Part shown: in pieces, positions 10,654-61,245 of the stretch | How positions within the stretch are numbered: position 1 is the first letter of the stretch | Layout of the letters: each line of letters opens with the position of its first letter | From: Eledone cirrhosa | Taxonomy: Eukaryota | Direction: 5' to 3' | Length of the DNA: 64,000 nucleotides | Assembly (NCBI GenBank): GCA_964016885.1 | Contig: CAXHJY010000790.1 | Coordinates: 1 to 64,000, forward strand | Notes under the pieces: generated by a model | Database searches by the model: none | Seen by the model: only the letters and a program-made list of their open reading frames with translations | Told to the model about the DNA's origin: nothing | Translations under genes and position numbers: made by a program

Positions 10654-10789
10654 CAGTAGAACACTGGAAGGTAATATCCGTAGTGGTAGAGCACTCAGTC
10701 CATGGGACGAGTTAGGTGGAAGAGGTTACACAACAGTTAGTTCACCATACAGAAAACAATTGTTTCACCTTAGCGGATCCTCAGCATTA

Positions 10790-10827
10790 CGAGCTGAGGA
10801 TCCGCTAAGGTGAAACAATTGTTCTCG
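10790..10827 (+). ncRNA. Minimal type I hammerhead ribozyme candidate
   Basis: cgag CTGAGGA t cc gctaa gg t GAAA caattg TT ctcg. Stem II is only 2 bp. Lies at the centre of the 10724-10854 hairpin. Confidence 0.55.
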
Positions 10828-10855
10828 GTATGGTGAACTAACTGTTGTGTAACCA

Positions 10856-11239: not shown

Positions 11240-11305
11240 TATTTCATTATATATATTTCGGGGATATCATATTAACAATATGCTATGCCTTCATCAGACA
11301 AAATA
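11240..11305 (-). ncRNA. Type I hammerhead ribozyme (mirror copy)
   Basis: Exact reverse complement of 11460-11525 within a near-perfect palindrome. Confidence 0.7.
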
Positions 11306-11459
11306 CAATATAAACAGTTTTATAGATAAATATATTCGACATACCGTAATAAACATCAACTTCATTTGAAGAGGTTTATGCTAGCGTAAACCTCTTCAAA
11401 TGAAGTTGATGTTTATTACGGTATGTCGAATATATTTATCTATAAAACTGTTTATATTG

Positions 11460-11525
11460 TATTTTGTCTGATGAAGGCATAGCATATTGTTAATATGATA
11501 TCCCCGAAATATATATAATGAAATA
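11460..11525 (+). ncRNA. Type I hammerhead ribozyme
   Basis: tattttgt CTGATGA aggcatagcatatt gtt aatatgatatcccc GAAA tatata TA atgaaata. Stem I 8 bp with GU pairs; stem II imperfect. Confidence 0.7.
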
Positions 11526-14150: not shown

Positions 14151-15016
14151 CGAGGTATATCAGAAAAGTTCCAGGACTGATGTCACAAAAGATTTACCTT
14201 CACACTAAGAGTTTTCTCCTTCAAAGTAATCCCCCTGGAGTCTAATGCACTATTCCATCCTTTTCTGCCACGCTTACGTGCACTCCTGAAAGGATTCTTC
14301 CGGGATCCTCCGCAGTTCTGTCATCACGGCCTTTTTGATGTCGTCCACGTCTTCAAAACGAGTCCTTTCCGGGTCGTACTCAAAGATCCATGACTCATCA
14401 CCGGTGATGACTGTCCCTAGCAAGTCTGGTTCGGTTTCAAGACGCTCGAGGATGTCCTGGCACACTTGCATGCGTCGACCCGTCTGGTCATCGTTCAGCA
14501 GTTTTGGCACCATCTTCGCGCAGACTTTCCGCATATCCAAATCTTCAGTGAGAATCTTCAAGACGCTGTCCCGATTCATGCCCAGCTCATTTGCCATCAG
14601 TCGAACAGTCAGCCGACGATCGCTACGCACCATCTGCCTGACGCGCTCAACGTTGACCTCAGTCCTGGTTGTTGGGGGCTCTTGGAGTCATCTTCAACGT
14701 CCTCGCGTCCTTCTTTAAAACTCTTGCACCACTCAAAAACACTTGAGCTTGACATCGTCTCATCTCTGACGGAGTTTTTCCCAAGCGTACCAGAAACTTC
14801 AAGTCTGTTCGTTGCTCTGTACTGTTTGCTTGACGACCTGAAACAGAGGACATGTATATAGAATTATGAAGAAAAAAGTTTGATAGCTGCAGAGAGTTAA
14901 GATTACAGTTACATACTCCAGGGGGATTACTTTGAAGGAGAAAACTCTTAGTGTGAAGTTGGGTTTGAAATAAATCTTTTGTGACATCAGCCCTGGAACT
15001 TTTCTGACACACCTCG
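14151..15016 (-). mobile_element. Internally deleted mariner (Tc1/mariner) transposon
   Basis: About 90-100 bp inverted ends starting cgaggt.t.tcagaaaagttccagg, with TA on both sides. Transposase remnant has DRRLTVR, KVCAKMVPKLL and ITGDESWIFEYDPE fused directly to the C-terminal RFEDVDDIKKAV. Confidence 0.92.
14274..14830 (-). pseudogene. Mariner transposase remnant
   Basis: Frameshifted N-terminus (EQRTDLKFLVRLGKTPSE), HTH region and first catalytic Asp present; the rest of DD34D is deleted. Confidence 0.9.
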
Positions 15017-15070: not shown

Positions 15071-15137
15071 TATTTTATTATACATATTTCAGAGGTACTG
15101 AGTTAAGTTCAACAGTACGTCCTCATCAGATACAATA
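15071..15137 (-). ncRNA. Type I hammerhead ribozyme
   Basis: Sense: tattgtat CTGATGA ggacgtactg...cagtacctct GAAA tatgta TA ataaaata. Same family as 28051-28105. Confidence 0.7.
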
Positions 15138-15201: not shown

Positions 15202-15229
<28 letters not shown>

Positions 15230-15235
<6 letters not shown>

Positions 15236-16662
15236 TTAGTTATACTATTTATGGTTATGTAAACACAAAACCTTAAGCAGTTGTAAGTATTTTACACACA
15301 CCCTAAATAGTGGTAGGCAGTAATGTATTACTACCTTATTACCAGTAAGTTAAGTAGCTCAATGTAAAAACATCAGATGATTTACAGAGCAGTTATATGA
15401 AATATAAGAATCAAAGAACTGTTCAAAACATTATTGTGCTTACAGCTGTTTCCTCCAAACCGAGGTTTGGATTCTTCGGAGCAATTTATTAATGCATGGA
15501 CAGTTATATGACCTCCCTTTCAGCCGAGAGACATACCAATACAAACATTGATACATATTCAAACATTGTGGGTCAACATTCATTACAGAATTTAGAGTGG
15601 CAGTGCACACTTCGAGAATTACATTTATATTAATAGGTACAATCAAAAATCAAAGATATAGGTTAAAGTACAACATGAAGATAAGTGGTTATATAGTGCA
15701 AATGTTATATGTGTGGCACGCATGTGCGTCTTGTTTATATAGTGTGGCAGAGAGATATGTGTGGTAGAGGCACTTAGGTAGGTAAATAAGAGTGTTAGGT
15801 TGGTAGATCTGGTGGCAAAGTCTTTATATGATTGATATAGTCTGTGTGTGGAGAAATATTATAAGCATTAAAGATAGTGCAAGCATTAAAAGTGTTATAA
15901 GTATTGGAGATGCACAGCGCAGGGATGTCAAGTAATTCATGTACTTCGGTATTTTCATGGTCAAGGGAGTGTATATTTCGATTATATGCCTTTCACATAA
16001 TCCACGACAATCCAGTTAGAGATCGTAGTCTGGTGTTCTTTAGTTCGATACAGGAGGTTGTTACGTTTCGAGAGACGCCATTGAATACCGGAAGTGTGTG
16101 TGTGGCTAAGGGGAGTTAATGCATGCGGGGAGGTAACTCTGGGGTTTCTATATCTAGCCATTAAAATGTGTCCCAATATAGACCCTAAATTCTATGGTGA
16201 GGTGCACCTTCCAAGAGAGACTTTTAAAGCATAAAGTGTACTAACTATAGAGTAGTTTAACTAAATTATGCTGAAGGTGATCATATTATTATTAAGGTGG
16301 ATTAACCCATCTTAAGGTGCTACAAATGGAAATTATAGATGATGAGCGAGGATTCTAAATTAATGATCTCTGTGGTTGTAGTCTGCTCATATGACCAGGC
16401 GCGGTGATTGCAGGATTGCTTCAGGACCCAATGATCTCTGGTAAGATCTGGGTCATCGCTTGCTACATTGGATGCCGAAAGACAATCATCCCCAGGCAGG
16501 CCAAAGGTCAATCCGCAGTCCTCGCGACCCCTCTCTGACCGTCAGATCATCCATATACGTACAACCCGCACGGCAGTTGCATTGCATTCACTCACTGCGC
16601 TCAGCAGCCTGGTCCTACTGGTCAACAGCGCTACTCGATTAAATCATTTTACATCTGTCTAA
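15230..16662 (-). repeat. Downstream pseudo-LTR
   Basis: Appears identical to 19423-20855; the ORF track lists the same small peptides at offset +4193. Confidence 0.95.
15437..15483 (-). ncRNA. Minimal type I hammerhead ribozyme in downstream pLTR (U4C core variant)
   Basis: Sense: tgct CCGAAGA a tccaaac ctcg gtttgga g GAAA cagctg TA agca. Stem I 4 bp, stem II 7 bp, palindromic stem III, GUA triplet. Confidence 0.8.
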
Positions 16663-16920
16663 GGAAGGTGTTTCCTCTGCCCAACACCATCCAACCGATC
16701 AATTCATGCTCAAATTACCCTTAGAGCGGTGTAGTGCCGTCCAGGTGGGTGGATGTTGTCACACCTGCCGTAGAGGTATAAATGGGTAATTTCCTGCGAA
16801 GGGTTCCAGAGGGATGTCGTTGTTTGTGTTATAATGGATCAGCTAGTGTTGGGTATGTAGTATAGGGTGTGTCTCTGGTGTTTGATGCTAGATGTGGTGT
16901 TAGGTTCCAGTCCGACATTG

Positions 16921-19380
16921 CTATATATAGGGCTTAAAGTTTTGGAAGGAATGTCTGAGGCGGTGCTGGCAAGTTGCAAACACCTCAGATTTTTTGTTAA
17001 GTAGGTTACGGTTGGAGAAGATAATATTGTGTGTCTCTAGTATACAGAGGTTACAGAATTTATTAGGTGGTTTGTACGAGGTCGCGCTGCCTATCACTTC
17101 CCATTTGAGTGTGTATGGTTTATTTTTAGATTTTAGAAAGTGTATGTAGCTAGAAAGTGAGGTGGAGTTGGCTAGGCTGTGCTTTTTGAACGAGTGGATG
17201 TGCGAGTTATATCTAATTTTGAAGCAGTTAGAAGTGGAGCCTACATAGGTTTCTGAAGAGTTATTAGTCGTGACTGTGCATGAGTATATGACATCCTTGG
17301 TTAGGCATTTTTTATCTAAAGGGCAGGTTCTATTAGCTCTACAGTTACAATTATTCTGTGCGTTAGTCCGCTGGTTATAATGCAATGCGGAAGTCTGTGT
17401 GGTGGATATAGGATTTTGGGTGTTCAGGTTGACAACCCTGGTGTTATTACTTATACTAGTGTTATTTCTATTGTTACTGCCGTTGCTATTGTTGCTTGCT
17501 ACAGTGGTATTTAGAGGGTTTGCATCCCGTTGCGATTTTGTTTGTTGGAAGTAAGAACTAATTTTACTATTATTGCTGCTAGCTATGTGGTATGCTAAGT
17601 TAGGCGTCGTGGAGTATGAGATTTTAATGGTGTTTTTGTTTAAGAGGTTGTGGTACTTGTGTCCTAGAGGGAAGTTTTTATCTAGTAGTGAGAAGAAAGC
17701 CCTAGGTATGTTGGTGGAGACATTTAGGTTGAAAGGAGGGTTGAAAAATGTATTATTTCTTCTTCTATTTTTGCTTTTAGTGTTTGGTGTGTTGCTTCCT
17801 CCTAAGGCCTCACAGTAGTTTCCATGGTAATGGTTACTTCCGGTGGCACCCTCCGCTTTGGTGTACTTGTGGTTGCTATTCCTATTATTAGATTTCCTCA
17901 TGGACATGTTGTGCGAGATGATGTTGTAGCTATGTGTTTTCTTAGGTAGGAACTCAATTTCTATATTATGGCCGGAGCTAGCTAATGCTTGATTGTAATA
18001 TTGTGAGTTTTTGCTAAATATGTTTGCGTCATAGGACAGACTAGAGATTCTATTGGACACCCCCTTAGAGATAGAGTTTAATATTGATCTAGGGTGATTA
18101 GACTTGGTATCTACGTAAATAAGTTTCTCATTAGGCTTATGGAAGGGTGTATATATTTTTGAGTCTAGGTATAGTGTGGCGTCTAGGAAGTTAACATTTT
18201 TAGTGTTTTTGTCCATGGTGATACTAAGGTTAAAGTTTTTGAATGTCTTATGCAGTTGTTTTCTAGTTCTTTCTATATTAAATTTTTTATATTCTATGAG
18301 TAGAAGTGCATCATCGCGGTACAAACCACCGTTGAGGTAAGGGAGGTCTTTATGGATTTCATTGAGGAGGTATAGGCCGACCAAATCAGTGACCTGCGCC
18401 GAGTCACTAGATCCCATGGTTATGTCGAAGTTGTTGTGCGTATCCTTGCGTGTCCATAGTTGGTCCTCGAAGGTGATTATGGTTTTACGGGCCGCAAGGA
18501 TGACATCAACCTGGGCTCTAGTCAGGTCGCTATTGGTCATGGCCATGATAAGTGCCTTATTTAATAGGATAGGGGAAATAGAGGTGTAGTATGAATTGAT
18601 ATCAAATTGAATAAATTTTTTGTTCTTATTATTCTTGATATCCTTAAACCATTCAATTACTTCACCCGTATTTCCCCATTGTTTAAGGTGTATCTTGTGT
18701 TTAATTTGTGGGATGATTTTATCCAAAATCTTCTTGCTGATAATACCAATGTCGGACTTGGAAGGGCAGATAAGTCTTATCGTGGGGTTGCTGATGAAGT
18801 TCTCCTTATGGTCCTTCAGAGAGAATCTAGGGGGGTTCGGAGTGAAAGGTTGTGTATGCCTCTGTAGTCCTAGTTTAGACACTATATTATAACCCTCTAC
18901 ATTAATATCTTCTAAGTTTTTCAAGGTGGTTTTTTTGTAGCTTTTATGTAGTTCATTATATATAAACTTTCTATAAGTAATATAATCTAGGCTGTATATG
19001 TTATTAGTTTTATCTGCGTGTACAATAATTTTATTACTAGTTTTGAATCCACTAATAGAAGTGTTAAGTTTGTTTAAGAAGGTGTTGCTTCTAATATGGT
19101 GCTTATTGTATTTAATGTTCTTAACTAGTTTAACTAGGTCATTTTCAAAGGAGTTAAGTAGAGTGTTATGAGGGGGGCTTTTAAAGGTTTTAAAGCCGAA
19201 GGAGTCAAAATTGTTAGTATTATTCAAGTTGTTAGATTTGTTTCTATCATAATGGAATGTCCTCCATCTCACTCTATTGATAAATGAATTTACACTGTTG
19301 ATCAGCAATTTCTCATATGTATTCCTGGATGGTATTGGTATGTTCTTGGTTGACATGGGGAGTTGGTCTTTGATTAGCAT
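16921..19380 (-). CDS. Penelope-like reverse transcriptase with C-terminal GIY-YIG endonuclease (819 aa)
   Basis: Uninterrupted ORF. RT motifs: ADKTNN, RLICP, QFDINSYY, FDITMGSSDS, GLYRDD, VNFLDATL. A Cys cluster CNCR-x4-CPL-x3-CL precedes the GIY-YIG motifs VIY...YVGST...FKIRY, and the C-terminus has CNLC...NKKSE...CQH. This layout matches Naiad-clade PLEs as I recall them. Confidence 0.95.
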   Translation of the reverse strand: MLIKDQLPMSTKNIPIPSRNTYEKLLINSVNSFINRVRWRTFHYDRNKSNNLNNTNNFDSFGFKTFKSPPHNTLLNSFENDLVKLVKNIKYNKHHIRSNTFLNKLNTSISGFKTSNKIIVHADKTNNIYSLDYITYRKFIYNELHKSYKKTTLKNLEDINVEGYNIVSKLGLQRHTQPFTPNPPRFSLKDHKENFISNPTIRLICPSKSDIGIISKKILDKIIPQIKHKIHLKQWGNTGEVIEWFKDIKNNKNKKFIQFDINSYYTSISPILLNKALIMAMTNSDLTRAQVDVILAARKTIITFEDQLWTRKDTHNNFDITMGSSDSAQVTDLVGLYLLNEIHKDLPYLNGGLYRDDALLLIEYKKFNIERTRKQLHKTFKNFNLSITMDKNTKNVNFLDATLYLDSKIYTPFHKPNEKLIYVDTKSNHPRSILNSISKGVSNRISSLSYDANIFSKNSQYYNQALASSGHNIEIEFLPKKTHSYNIISHNMSMRKSNNRNSNHKYTKAEGATGSNHYHGNYCEALGGSNTPNTKSKNRRRNNTFFNPPFNLNVSTNIPRAFFSLLDKNFPLGHKYHNLLNKNTIKISYSTTPNLAYHIASSNNSKISSYFQQTKSQRDANPLNTTVASNNSNGSNNRNNTSISNNTRVVNLNTQNPISTTQTSALHYNQRTNAQNNCNCRANRTCPLDKKCLTKDVIYSCTVTTNNSSETYVGSTSNCFKIRYNSHIHSFKKHSLANSTSLSSYIHFLKSKNKPYTLKWEVIGSATSYKPPNKFCNLCILETHNIIFSNRNLLNKKSEVFATCQHRLRHSFQNFKPYI

Positions 19381-19422
19381 ATTGGCAATATTATATGTCA
19401 GCTCAACGATATGGAGCAGTTA

Positions 19423-20855
19423 ATAGTATTAGTTATACTATTTATGGTTATGTAAACACAAAACCTTAAGCAGTTGTAAGTATTTTACACACACCCTAAA
19501 TAGTGGTAGGCAGTAATGTATTACTACCTTATTACCAGTAAGTTAAGTAGCTCAATGTAAAAACATCAGATGATTTACAGAGCAGTTATATGAAATATAA
19601 GAATCAAAGAACTGTTCAAAACATTATTGTGCTTACAGCTGTTTCCTCCAAACCGAGGTTTGGATTCTTCGGAGCAATTTATTAATGCATGGACAGTTAT
19701 ATGACCTCCCTTTCAGCCGAGAGACATACCAATACAAACATTGATACATATTCAAACATTGTGGGTCAACATTCATTACAGAATTTAGAGTGGCAGTGCA
19801 CACTTCGAGAATTACATTTATATTAATAGGTACAATCAAAAATCAAAGATATAGGTTAAAGTACAACATGAAGATAAGTGGTTATATAGTGCAAATGTTA
19901 TATGTGTGGCACGCATGTGCGTCTTGTTTATATAGTGTGGCAGAGAGATATGTGTGGTAGAGGCACTTAGGTAGGTAAATAAGAGTGTTAGGTTGGTAGA
20001 TCTGGTGGCAAAGTCTTTATATGATTGATATAGTCTGTGTGTGGAGAAATATTATAAGCATTAAAGATAGTGCAAGCATTAAAAGTGTTATAAGTATTGG
20101 AGATGCACAGCGCAGGGATGTCAAGTAATTCATGTACTTCGGTATTTTCATGGTCAAGGGAGTGTATATTTCGATTATATGCCTTTCACATAATCCACGA
20201 CAATCCAGTTAGAGATCGTAGTCTGGTGTTCTTTAGTTCGATACAGGAGGTTGTTACGTTTCGAGAGACGCCATTGAATACCGGAAGTGTGTGTGTGGCT
20301 AAGGGGAGTTAATGCATGCGGGGAGGTAACTCTGGGGTTTCTATATCTAGCCATTAAAATGTGTCCCAATATAGACCCTAAATTCTATGGTGAGGTGCAC
20401 CTTCCAAGAGAGACTTTTAAAGCATAAAGTGTACTAACTATAGAGTAGTTTAACTAAATTATGCTGAAGGTGATCATATTATTATTAAGGTGGATTAACC
20501 CATCTTAAGGTGCTACAAATGGAAATTATAGATGATGAGCGAGGATTCTAAATTAATGATCTCTGTGGTTGTAGTCTGCTCATATGACCAGGCGCGGTGA
20601 TTGCAGGATTGCTTCAGGACCCAATGATCTCTGGTAAGATCTGGGTCATCGCTTGCTACATTGGATGCCGAAAGACAATCATCCCCAGGCAGGCCAAAGG
20701 TCAATCCGCAGTCCTCGCGACCCCTCTCTGACCGTCAGATCATCCATATACGTACAACCCGCACGGCAGTTGCATTGCATTCACTCACTGCGCTCAGCAG
20801 CCTGGTCCTACTGGTCAACAGCGCTACTCGATTAAATCATTTTACATCTGTCTAA
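19423..20855 (-). repeat. Upstream pseudo-LTR
   Basis: Direct copy of 15230-16662, ending 42 nt before the ATG at 19380. Confidence 0.95.
19630..19676 (-). ncRNA. Minimal type I hammerhead ribozyme in upstream pLTR
   Basis: Identical to 15437-15483. Confidence 0.8.
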
Positions 20856-22679
20856 ATTAGATATAACTCGCACATCCACTCGTTCAAAAAGCACAGCCTA
20901 GCCAACTCCACCTCACTTTCTAGCTACATACACTTTCTAAAATCTAAAAATAAACCATACACACTCAAATGGGAAGTGATAGGCAGCGCGACCTCGTACA
21001 AACCACCTAATAAATTCTGTAACCTCTGTATACTAGAGACACACAATATTATCTTCTCCAACCGTAACCTACTTAACAAAAAATCTGAGGTGTTTGCAAC
21101 TTGCCAGCACCGCCTCAGACATTCCTTCCAAAACTTTAAGCCCTATATATAGCAATGTCGGACTGGAACCTAACACCACATCTAGCATCAAACACCAGAG
21201 ACACACCCTATACTACATACCCAACACTAGCTGATCCATTATAACACAAACAACGACATCCCTCTGGAACCCTTCGCAGGAAATTACCCATTTATACCTC
21301 TACGGCAGGTGTGACAACATCCACCCACCTGGACGGCACTACACCGCTCTAAGGGTAATTTGAGCATGAATTGATCGGTTGGATGGTGTTGGGCAGAGGA
21401 AACACCTTCCTTAGACAGATGTAAAATGATTTAATCGAGTAGCGCTGTTGACCAGTAGGACCAGGCTGCTGAGCGCAGTGAGTGAATGCAATGCAACTGC
21501 CGTGCGGGTTGTACGTATATGGATGATCTGACGGTCAGAGAGGGGTCGCGAGGACTGCGGATTGACCTTTGGCCTGCCTGGGGATGATTGTCTTTCGGCA
21601 TCCAATGTAGCAAGCGATGACCCAGATCTTACCAGAGATCATTGGGTCCTGAAGCAATCCTGCAATCACCGCGCCTGGTCATATGAGCAGACTACAACCA
21701 CAGAGATCATTAATTTAGAATCCTCGCTCATCATCTATAATTTCCATTTGTAGCACCTTAAGATGGGTTAATCCACCTTAATAATAATATGATCACCTTC
21801 AGCATAATTTAGTTAAACTACTCTATAGTTAGTACACTTTATGCTTTAAAAGTCTCTCTTGGAAGGTGCACCTCACCATAGAATTTAGGGTCTATATTGG
21901 GACACATTTTAATGGCTAGATATAGAAACCCCAGAGTTACCTCCCCGCATGCATTAACTCCCCTTAGCCACACACACACTTCCGGTATTCAATGGCGTCT
22001 CTCGAAACGTAACAACCTCCTGTATCGAACTAAAGAACACCAGACTACGATCTCTAACTGGATTGTCGTGGATTATGTGAAAGGCATATAATCGAAATAT
22101 ACACTCCCTTGACCATGAAAATACCGAAGTACATGAATTACTTGACATCCCTGCGCTGTGCATCTCCAATACTTATAACACTTTTAATGCTTGCACTATC
22201 TTTAATGCTTATAATATTTCTCCACACACAGACTATATCAATCATATAAAGACTTTGCCACCAGATCTACCAACCTAACACTCTTATTTACCTACCTAAG
22301 TGCCTCTACCACACATATCTCTCTGCCACACTATATAAACAAGACGCACATGCGTGCCACACATATAACATTTGCACTATATAACCACTTATCTTCATGT
22401 TGTACTTTAACCTATATCTTTGATTTTTGATTGTACCTATTAATATAAATGTAATTCTCGAAGTGTGCACTGCCACTCTAAATTCTGTAATGAATGTTGA
22501 CCCACAATGTTTGAATATGTATCAATGTTTGTATTGGTATGTCTCTCGGCTGAAAGGGAGGTCATATAACTGTCCATGCATTAATAAATTGCTCCGAAGA
22601 ATCCAAACCTCGGTTTGGAGGAAACAGCTGTAAGCACAATAATGTTTTGAACAGTTCTTTGATTCTTATATTTCATATA
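20854..22679 (+). repeat. Inverted copy of the element 3' end (end of GIY-YIG coding region plus pLTR)
   Basis: Reverse complement of 15394-17219. The coordinate sum is 38073 at both ends, so there is no net indel. Confidence 0.95.
22590..22636 (+). ncRNA. Minimal type I hammerhead ribozyme in inverted pLTR
   Basis: tgctccgaagaatccaaacctcggtttggaggaaacagctgtaagca, read directly on the + strand. Confidence 0.8.
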
Positions 22680-22712
22680 TTTCATATATATATATATATA
22701 TATATACAAGTA

Positions 22713-22744
<32 letters not shown>

Positions 22745-22764
22745 CAAGTATATTTATATATATC

Positions 22765-22816
<52 letters not shown>

Positions 22817-22820
22817 AGTA

Positions 22821-22860
<40 letters not shown>

Positions 22861-22864
22861 AGTA

Positions 22865-22904
<40 letters not shown>

Positions 22905-22929
22905 AGTATATTTATATATATCTATATAC

Positions 22930-22981
<52 letters not shown>

Positions 22982-23006
22982 AGTATATTTATATATATCT
23001 ATATAC

Positions 23007-23051
<45 letters not shown>

Positions 23052-28050: not shown

Positions 28051-28105
28051 CATTTTATTATACATATTTCGGATGTACAGCAGTACGTCCTCATCAGACA
28101 AAATA
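28051..28105 (-). ncRNA. Type I hammerhead ribozyme
   Basis: Sense: tattttgt CTGATGA ggacgtac tgct gtacatcc GAAA tatgta TA ataaaatg. Confidence 0.8.
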
Positions 28106-31445: not shown

Positions 31446-31516
31446 TATTTCATTATGCGCATTTCAAAAACAAATATAATCATGAGATGATATCTGCGAT
31501 TTCATCAGATAAAATA
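31446..31516 (-). ncRNA. Type I hammerhead ribozyme (left arm of inverted pair)
   Basis: Sense: tattttat CTGATGA aatcgcagatat...atatttgttttt GAAA tgcgca TA atgaaata. Confidence 0.75.
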
Positions 31517-31650
31517 GGGATACGTGATATGAAGGTTAAAACTTCACTATTCACAGTCTTTTTTAACTTTCATATCATGATACGGATATATATGTATTAC
31601 AGTGGCCCTTAGCAATAGGTAATTTTCCGAAAGTTAAAATTTTGTATCCC

Positions 31651-31721
31651 TATTTTATCTGATGAAAACGCAAATATCATCTCATAGTGATATTTGTTTT
31701 TGAAATGCGCATAATAAAATA
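31651..31721 (+). ncRNA. Type I hammerhead ribozyme (right arm of inverted pair)
   Basis: tattttat CTGATGA aaacgcaaatatca...tgatatttgttttt GAAA tgcgca TA ataaaata. Perfect 8-bp stem I and palindromic stem III. Confidence 0.8.
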
Positions 31722-41185: not shown

Positions 41186-41512
41186 TATATACAATATATA
41201 AACAAATGGAAACTATATTTTTAAAACCCTATTTATTGCTTTATACATATTTCAGAATGATTGCATTTTTTTAAGGGTATGTCAATATTTATTTATAAAA
41301 CTAACCTACATTATATTTTATCTGATGAAAGCGCACCATAGTTTGCTTTGGTGGCCATTGAAATATGTATAATGAAATAAATCTAGTTTTATAAATATAG
41401 TTTCCATTTGTTAATATATTGTATATTTACTCCAATAATTTGTTGATTGCTTTATAACAGTTATAAAAATATTTTGCTTGTTGTCTCCCAACAAATTAAA
41501 TATAACCTCTAC
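41186..41512 (+). mobile_element. Short non-coding HHR element with inverted partial copy at its 5' end, in (TA)n
   Basis: 41186-41252 is an inverted copy of the post-HHR segment; the remainder aligns with 11420-11657. Confidence 0.7.
41314..41379 (+). ncRNA. Type I hammerhead ribozyme
   Basis: tattttat CTGATGA aagcgcacca...tggtggccatt GAAA tatgta TA atgaaata. Confidence 0.7.
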
Positions 41513-52453: not shown

Positions 52454-52489
52454 TCTTCTGATGAAGGACTAGCGTCCGAAATGTAAAGA
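52454..52489 (+). ncRNA. Minimal type I hammerhead ribozyme
   Basis: tctt CTGATGA a ggac tagc gtcc GAAA tg TA aaga. Confidence 0.6.
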
Positions 52490-52939: not shown

Positions 52940-53005
52940 TATTTTATCTGATGAAAGCGCACCATAATTTGCCTTGGTGGCCCTTGAAATATGTATAATA
53001 AAATA
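52940..53005 (+). ncRNA. Type I hammerhead ribozyme
   Basis: tattttat CTGATGA aagcgcacca...tggtggccctt GAAA tatgta TA ataaaata. Confidence 0.75.
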
Positions 53006-58674: not shown

Positions 58675-58710
58675 TCTTCTGATGAAGGGCTAGTGTCCGA
58701 AAGGTTAAAA
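58675..58710 (+). ncRNA. Degenerate minimal hammerhead (same family as 52454)
   Basis: tctt CTGATGA a gggc tagt gtcc GAAA gg TT aaaa. Stems I and III are decayed; downstream flank is homologous to 52490-52575. Confidence 0.45.
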
Positions 58711-61190: not shown

Positions 61191-61245
61191 TATGCATCTG
61201 ATGAGCGCATACCAAAGTTTTGGTACCCTTGAAATGTATAGAAAA
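61191..61245 (+). ncRNA. Degenerate hammerhead
   Basis: CTGATGA gcgcataccaaagttttggtaccctt GAAA tgta TA. The 3' strand of stem I is missing; downstream gtcgagtgcttt matches 11588-11599. Confidence 0.4.

Follow-up and report, generated by a model that had tools for sequence, protein, structure and literature searches.

Repeats within insertions of a Hydra-clade Penelope-like retrotransposon in Eledone cirrhosa point to one hammerhead-bounded template read repeatedly

A stretch of 64,000 nt from Eledone cirrhosa (assembly GCA_964016885.1, contig CAXHJY010000790.1, positions 1 to 64,000 of the forward strand), called the window in the following, harbors at 15230 to 22679 an intact, young copy of a Penelope-like retrotransposon (PLE) of the Hydra clade. 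The element represents a new family within this known clade. Its insertions contain tandem and inverted repeats, which share variants private to the single insertion. Repeated reading of one unit-length template is very probably the origin of these repeats. Cleavage of the transcript by hammerhead ribozymes, circularisation and copying from both sides of the target form the best explanation of the whole and are proposed with moderate confidence.

Positions in the element are numbered from +1, the first base past the predicted upstream hammerhead cut (window 19633), and one unit comprises 4193 nt. The term arm denotes the part of an insertion that has one orientation, and each copy of a given position within an insertion is called a pass or lap. 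The locus is organized as follows:

15204 to 15229, no strand assigned: (TA)n target, left side
15230 to 20855, minus strand: main arm of 5626 nt (1.34 units), with its 3' end at +211 past the hammerhead cut
15441 to 19633, minus strand: predicted unit RNA from cut to cut, 4193 nt (+1 to +4193), putative template
15441 to 16920, minus strand: 3' untranslated region (UTR), 1480 nt
16475 to 16483, minus strand: two private substitutions of this insertion, present in all three repeats (also at 20668/20676 and in the inverted arm)
16789, minus strand: third private substitution, common to the inverted arm
19381 to 19633, minus strand: leader from cut to ATG, 253 nt, with both putative start sites of the reverse transcriptase (RT) at +47 and +211, predicted hairpins and two very short upstream ATG frames
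20854 to 22679, plus strand: inverted arm of 1826 nt, head-to-head with the main arm (junction overlap of 2 nt), with its 3' end at +47
22680 to 22688, plus strand: additional terminal 9-mer at the +47 end, probably from reiterated synthesis
22689 to 23047, no strand assigned: (TA)n-rich target, right side

The direct repeat 15230-16662 equals 19423-20855 over 1433 nt with 100% identity and an offset of 4193. Over 1826 nt, the inverted arm 20854-22679 matches the reverse complement of 15394-17219 without a single difference. An earlier sequence-only reading had described three apparently identical pseudo-long terminal repeats (pseudo-LTRs), and the alignment revealed 0 differences among them. 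Its further description, an intact open reading frame (ORF), one hammerhead per repeat, predicted cuts after GUA at 19634 and 15441 at a distance of 4193 nt, and a leader of 253 nt between cut and ATG, agrees with the sequence. The three repeats end differently: the main arm stops at +211 and the inverted one at +47, and both run into (TA)n. A target-site duplication is unreadable within the (TA)n flanks. An assembly duplication is unlikely as source of the repeats of this copy, because 56 insertions elsewhere in the genome show the same architecture.

For the comparison of copies, 100 stretches were fetched, corresponding to 97 loci: 43 were obtained via DNA searches, mostly for read-through of +211, and 54 in chromosome order from the first C1 hammerhead matches. 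Variants were scored in 57 loci whose arms match the window with an identity of 97.9% or more, after masking of 564 positions near indels and of 15 nt at the arm 5' ends. Tandem laps differ at 41 of 32,998 bases (0.12%), compared with 0.89% between loci and 0.32% to the nearest other locus. Opposite, inverted arms differ at 66 of 76,539 bases, compared with 0.83% between loci and 0.29% to the nearest other locus. Multi-locus variants were concordant across the passes in 200 of 208 cases. Among the private variants covered at least twice (n=161), 89 were present in all passes and 67 in one. A shared private variant was found in 18 of the 35 loci with a tandem overlap of at least 200 nt. The 31-mer with the double variant of the window has three occurrences in 3.0 Gb, all inside this insertion. 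Since a new mutation arises in one copy, the sharing requires a step which rebuilds all passes from one.

The mutation spectrum differs between the two classes. Shared private variants are strand-biased, with T>C 24 versus A>G 14, A>T 17 versus T>A 2, and G>A 11 versus C>T 5 (G=26.3, 6 df, p=2e-4). Single-pass variants are symmetric (p=0.53) and rich in C>T and G>A (33/67 versus 16/89 among the shared ones, p=5e-5). The sharing is thus attributed to the replication cycle, because the shared spectrum is strand-biased and RT-like and the single-pass spectrum is not. An excess of T>C over A>G and of G>A over C>T would be expected from wobble errors on a sense template. A-to-I editing as origin of the shared variants was rejected, as A>G is not in excess. 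Variants common to the laps lie on either side of the cut. Thirteen cases of sharing between laps are located within +1 to +211 (e.g. at +19, 23, 34, 39, 40, 64, 117, 119, 171 and 177), and therefore the start region itself is re-read. Junctions that read through the cut contain an insertion in 0 of 147 cases and a single substitution in 3.

All 56 head-to-head insertions among the 97 loci pair one short end with one long end. A short end was called at +30 to +50 (+45 to +47 in young copies) and a long end at +200 to +216. The other loci comprise 39 with a single arm, one complex locus and one with two long ends which are not head-to-head; a second arm below 25 nt or beyond the fetched stretch would escape detection. 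The pairing rule persists in subfamilies of about 80% identity, and either arm can be the longer one. Both end sites carry 3-5 nt matching (TA)n. These fixed ends are taken as RT start sites. The strict rule of one start per end extends the two internal start sites seen in vitro for the anole element (PMC11167929). In L094, L097 and L100, the arms have no common sequence; since they overlap nowhere, neither arm is a fold-back copy of the other. Arms longer than 4240 nt occur at least 43 times among the selected loci, with a maximum of 8523 nt, and an array at C23 comprises about 2.4 units. Some 99% of the arms cross the cut without a scar.

Among 40 young ends at +47, ten show the terminal 9-mer in 2-4 copies. 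Such copies would arise by realignment and re-copying, resembling the telomerase type. The repetition is visible in the window (22680-22688) and in L047, L048, L063, L073, L081 and L092, the latter with at least five copies. In L080, L111, L112 and L115, which belong to older subfamilies, the short end enters (CT)n, not (TA)n. Either a different target or a reiterated copying of the terminal CTCTC may be responsible. Inversion junctions recur directly past the stop codon in an AC-rich stretch at unit positions +2725 to +2761 (L003, L008/L071, L024).

Three copies of a predicted minimal type I hammerhead have been located in the insertion:

19630 to 19676, minus strand: upstream hammerhead, motif 19672-19634, predicted cut between 19634 and 19633
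15437 to 15483, minus strand: identical downstream hammerhead, motif 15479-15441, predicted cut between 15441 and 15440
22590 to 22636, plus strand: third hammerhead, in the inverted arm, motif 22594-22632

The motif consists, in order, of UGCU, CCGAAGA, A, a stem II of 7 bp, G, GAAA, CAGCUG, UA, the cut and AGCA. One unpaired base lies on either side of stem II, and the core CCGAAGA departs from the consensus at U4 (U4C). A search with the 34-nt hammerhead pattern yielded 4579 matches in the genome, and the reversed control 0; the motif is therefore not due to chance. The core was fixed by the search pattern, so that its conservation is not evidence. Stem III was left free in the pattern and reads CAGCTG, CAGTTG or CAATTG across the subfamilies, always self-complementary. 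Two copies are predicted to fold as a double hammerhead, which is the minimum-energy structure (-39.3 kcal/mol versus 2 x -15.6 kcal/mol). Rfam missed the motif, with two chance-level matches in 15230-19700; for the whole window, the matches listed (150 of 519) include microsatellite-driven microRNA noise. Nothing meaningful was matched by Rfam on the 3' UTR, which contains zero sense ORFs above 60 aa and a single antisense frame of 69 aa.

Cleavage was assessed by counting arm 5' ends per base, genome-wide for the young subfamily, with +1 named in advance and L195, L234 and L242 classified by eye. Seventeen of 23 matches, in 15 insertions, are arms starting exactly at +1. Ten control positions gave 0-11 such arms with a mean of 3.8, given here as truncated arms per matches: -53 (5/15), -8 (2/9), -3 (2/5), -2 (3/9), -1 (1/7), +2 (5/13), +3 (2/11), +5 (0/6), +8 (11/25) and +18 (7/17). 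The peak has a negative-binomial p of 0.005 with overdispersion. Both arms start at +1 in two insertions, and three single arms are exactly +1 to +47 or +1 to +211. In 13 of the 17 arms, T replaces A at -1, and additional AT bases occur in some; bases thus seem to be added on run-off. The hammerhead probably cleaves in vivo.

The following mechanism is proposed. The transcript is likely cut by two hammerheads, which would pair through stem III. The monomer is probably ligated into a circle of 4193 nt by a host ligase; RtcB closes retrozyme monomers in vitro (PMC7229834). The junction of such a circle would be the same as the tandem junction in the genome. Copying would proceed from both strands of the nicked (TA)n target, one with its start at +47 and the other at +211. 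Each RT would roll back through the joint over a variable distance, sometimes for more than two laps, and the two complementary DNAs (cDNAs) may be joined head-to-head via short overlaps. One such event would yield the partial tandem, the inverted arm and the one-sided tail, and the identical pseudo-LTRs would be rebuilt in each cycle. A linear monomer alone is insufficient, because copying would start inside the RNA at +47 and +211 and arms would reach at most 47 or 211 nt. An uncut tandem transcript is insufficient as well, because the repeats would not be homogenised. A circle is favored because a ligated cut monomer fits the scarless long arms, the homogenised repeats and the small run-off class; a covalent closure of the template is considered moderately likely. 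A minority of insertions likely originates from unligated or partly cut RNA. The sequence-only reading had suggested that paired hammerheads excise a unit of 4193 nt which could circularise. This obtains indirect genomic support from the copies. The idea had been put forward for Penelope-like elements in 2014 (PMC4209133).

Several observations weigh against the cutting and rolling-circle scheme. Five of the 161 private variants are present in all passes but one, and ten discordant sites lie within +1 to +211. The substitution U4C 'considerably decreases activity in vitro', and is still sufficient for viroid infectivity (PMC3088659). All Hydra hammerheads in File S2 of PMC8557442 have U4, unlike the C4 of the present family. 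In the young set, the control at +8 reaches 11 arms; three of these are paired with an arm starting at +1, and another six make up three symmetric junctions. Just 17 of 2059 are arms with their end at +1. In older subfamilies, where the first 30 loci of 31, 55 and 43 matches were classified and the background is high, a +1 peak is absent (6/30 at +1 versus 4/29 at -1, 8/30 at -2, 6-9/30 at -5 and 6-7/26 at -8). Both arms of L183/L184 read GAA instead of GUA at the cut, and L180 consists of exactly +1, one full lap and +211; these loci fit a linear RNA which was uncut at the 3' hammerhead. For Poseidon of the anole, cleavage needs protein, hammerhead mutants insert normally in vitro, and the cited text reports no RNA-seq read ending at the cut (PMC11167929). 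In this only in vitro system, as described there, cleavage was found dispensable. A parent-daughter pair for mapping of the template joint was not found; the window's sub-lineage comprises five insertions without another full-length member.

A linear template is a rather unlikely alternative. Here, the hammerhead or a start site sets the 5' end, and the unit is re-read because the RT jumps from there to the 3' end of this RNA or of a sister RNA, or because strands are transferred between the homologous repeats, with no covalent circle required. Homogenised repeats and arms of more than one unit are accounted for. The +1 arm ends show that free 5' ends exist, and L180 and L183/L184 match an RNA with a cut 5' and an uncut 3' hammerhead. 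End-to-end template jumping is known for R2. Run-off ends, however, seem to gain bases (13/17 with T at -1), yet 147 of 147 read-through junctions are free of insertions. Homologous transfer would leave the region from the 5' end to +211 unhomogenised, yet laps share variants at +19 to +177.

Homogenisation in DNA is improbable. It may proceed via a looped-out unit DNA circle, which gives rise to a concatemer transcript, or via gene conversion, with the hammerhead in a secondary role. A transcribed DNA circle would also yield seamless identical laps, and conversion could produce the five private variants present in all passes but one. However, conversion would spread ordinary genomic mutations, yet the shared and single-pass spectra differ (p=5e-5), and 67 variants have remained restricted to one pass. 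At least 18 of 35 terminal branches would require a DNA circle. The +1 peak and the stem III covariation are left unexplained.

In the conventional view, an uncut linear tandem transcript is copied once, new copies land in or beside older ones, and the hammerhead is a passenger. It may draw on the anole element, which in vitro accepts uncut RNA and is capable of nicking its own pseudo-LTR (PMC11167929), on the interpretation of pseudo-LTRs as tandem insertions by Schostak 2008 (PMC2377424) and on a possibly weak U4C core. It predicts that divergence within a locus equals divergence between loci and that discordances are inherited; observed were 0.12% versus 0.89% and concordance in 200 of 208 cases. 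A sub-lineage with a 6-nt deletion, found at 10 places in five insertions, carries the deletion in both arms of four of them, and the second arm of the fifth stops short of the site. The conventional view is largely contradicted for this element family and has a very low probability.

Formation of the inverted arm by fold-back or self-priming on an antisense template (Arkhipova 2013), in place of a second priming on the sense RNA, is equally improbable: both arms start at most 30 nt apart in 6 of 49 young junctions, some of them near-perfect palindromes, from which self-priming has been put forward (PMC3846280), but 43 of 49 are asymmetric, neither arm contains the other in several insertions, the arms of L094, L097 and L100 do not overlap, both outer ends are fixed and enter (TA)n, and the variant bias would fit wobble errors on a sense template.

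The protein encoded by the element with the putative circular template belongs, by its motifs, to the Hydra clade and not to Naiad:

16921 to 19380, minus strand: open ORF of 819 aa with RT and GIY-YIG endonuclease (EN); RWR at aa 38, DKT at 123, YRDD at 354
C-terminal part of the same 819-aa ORF: CxCX5C at 678 (CNCRANRTC), GIY-YIG-type YVGST at 712, CNLC at 776, CQH at 804

The EN is C-terminal, with motifs at aa 712-805 downstream of YRDD at 354, and the conserved R, H, E and N are present. At E<=1e-20, 304 homologs of the 819-aa protein were obtained, and its motifs line up in an alignment with 11 homologs (of 120 listed). One aligned homolog matched Pfam GIY-YIG at 1e-5. The 819-aa query itself gave no Pfam family at 0.01, and neither Pfam nor PDB sequence searches provided a name. 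An Asn-rich linker (24% N) separates RT and EN at aa 601-690 (window 17311-17580). It is missing in most aligned homologs and resembles the N-rich inserts of Adineta Penelopes.

Craig et al. (2021, PMC8557442) define Hydra by such motifs, and Naiad by an N-terminal EN and lack of canonical hammerheads. The assignment to Hydra is made because the C-terminal EN and the linker, DKT, CxxC and CxH features match this definition. DKT (aa 123) and an RWK-type motif (RWR at 38; RWK in several aligned homologs) are present. The linker is CxCX5C, CxxC and CxH surround the catalytic E and N, and CCHH is absent. Nearly all arm ends of the examined loci lie in (TA)n. Features of EN-containing Penelopes in general are found as well, a single RT/GIY-YIG ORF, partial tandem pseudo-LTRs, an inverted 5' copy and a one-sided tail. 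Compared with the CUGANGA hammerhead of Hydra, topology, GAAA, stem III and UA fit, and the core is CCGAAGA in nearly all copies seen. The earlier designation as Naiad-like had to be abandoned, since the EN is C-terminal and not N-terminal, DKT stands in place of DKA, a hammerhead-like motif is present and the Hydra diagnostics are found. Neptune and Nematis were rejected as well, as the linker is CxCX5C and not CX2-5CxxC, and CCHH is lacking.

The Hydra elements described in PMC8557442 share the C-terminal GIY-YIG, DKT, the RWK-like motif, CxCX5C, CxxC/CxH, the lack of CCHH, the (TA)n target and unpaired bases flanking stem II of the hammerhead. The present unit is longer, with 4193 nt versus at most 3045 nt for the Hydra consensus sequences listed in File S1, and the 3' UTR of 1.5 kb and the N-rich linker are its own features. 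Its CCGA core differs from CUGA in all Hydra hammerheads of File S2, and Hydra-1_oBim has an unlike hammerhead. Naiads, as described in the same source, resemble the element in the (TA)n preference, in tandem and inverted insertions and in the one-sided tail. They differ by an N-terminal EN, DKA, CCHH and the lack of a canonical hammerhead, none of which holds for this family.

The family is abundant. The young stretch +1 to +29 has 2059 exact copies in the 3.0-Gb genome of 1796 contigs, and 30 of 38 full ORFs in the fetched loci are open for at least 810 aa (one was counted twice via overlapping stretches). Together with the repeats free of differences, these numbers support the earlier view of a very recent insertion and a candidate active element. 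ORF variants found in at least three loci are synonymous in 11 and non-synonymous in 6 cases. In the private classes of ORF variants, too, the synonymous share lies above the 20% that holds for all possible changes, and the selection signal on the ORF is therefore modest. Runs X1, X2, X5 and X9, with four organism codes, contain family pieces of at least 99% identity; close relatives, mixed samples or transfer are not distinguishable. In the four DNA runs searched, the unit detected no contig with the three private alleles of the window, and among the records listed for the inversion junction none spans it. As rare variants are lost from contigs and one of the runs is reduced-representation, absence does not follow from these results.

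The architecture has already been described for PLEs (PMC8557442, PMC2377424, PMC3846280), and the circle model was known from 2014 (PMC4209133). Cervera and de la Pena (2014, PMC4209133) found minimal type I hammerheads in both pseudo-LTRs, with palindromic stem III and activity as dimers, and considered a circle as template for copying beyond unit length. Their cut-and-circularise model was, by its own statement, without in vivo evidence; here, it is examined by genomic signatures at the level of copies. In the literature searched, which left most subscription papers outside, no report was found of shared private variants within Penelope insertions, of strict start-site pairing or of arms that terminate at the hammerhead cut.

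Poseidon of Anolis carolinensis (Frangieh et al., 2024, PMC11167929) also has two internal RT starts downstream of the hammerhead, which define the tail. Both target strands are extended, and the target is AT-rich. Its starts, however, are adjacent (tail of 30-40 nt) and located in the ORF, without strand preference, while the putative starts of the present element are 164 nt apart in the leader, match the target by 3-5 nt of TA and are used strictly one per end. A sign of in vivo cleavage is not reported in the cited text on Poseidon, whereas a modest peak of arm ends at the cut is seen here. Non-LTR retrozymes likewise form tandem units with type I hammerheads, their monomers are closed by RtcB in vitro, and circles occur in vivo (PMC7229834; bioRxiv 10.64898/2026.07.22.740005). 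They are non-coding and measure 170-400 nt, whereas the present element would be an autonomous coding circle of 4.2 kb.

Twin priming of L1 comprises priming by both target strands and results in a head-to-head inversion. The second site is variable, and the arms are without overlap. The element from Eledone cirrhosa has two fixed sites, and as a rule the same sequence recurs in both arms.

Other parts of the window contain related sequences, and Penelope 3' ends abound in the genome. At 11252-11513 and 31454-31713, minimal hammerheads of other Penelope families, with the canonical CUGAUGA core, are arranged in head-to-head pairs. Each pair has a short tail that runs into (TA)n and a second, longer one, as in the main family. 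Seven further hammerhead-like relics have CUGAUGA cores:

15081 to 15129, minus strand: hammerhead-like relic
28061 to 28097, minus strand: hammerhead-like relic
41322 to 41369, plus strand: hammerhead-like relic
52948 to 52995, plus strand: hammerhead-like relic
61198 to 61238, plus strand: hammerhead-like relic
52458 to 52485, plus strand: hammerhead-like relic
58679 to 58706, plus strand: hammerhead-like relic

A near-perfect hairpin of 133 nt at 10723-10855, next to (TA)n, resembles a miniature inverted-repeat transposable element; a related flank adjoins copies in L086. A relic at about 14300-14900 (minus strand) resembles, by eye, a mariner/Tc1 transposase.

The family is young, its copies number in the thousands and many of its ORFs are open. 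The template has left its record in these copies: the repeats are very probably rebuilt from one unit, and each end has its own putative start site. Exact coordinates for bench work are provided by +1, +47 and +211. Sharing of private variants within an insertion is a test which requires a genome only and is applicable to any Penelope family, including the hammerhead-less Naiads. Chances appear evenly balanced that the element is an autonomous animal retrotransposon which replicates via a ribozyme-made circular messenger RNA of 4.2 kb, with an asymmetric RT pair that is primed by both target strands at two fixed sites and travels around one and the same circle, and with telomerase-like repeat addition at one of the start sites. 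The RTs of Penelope are sister to telomerase, and rolling or reiterative copying would bear on telomerase origins. If true, the circle mechanism would explain together the regeneration of pseudo-LTRs, the inverted copy and the tail of Penelope-like elements.

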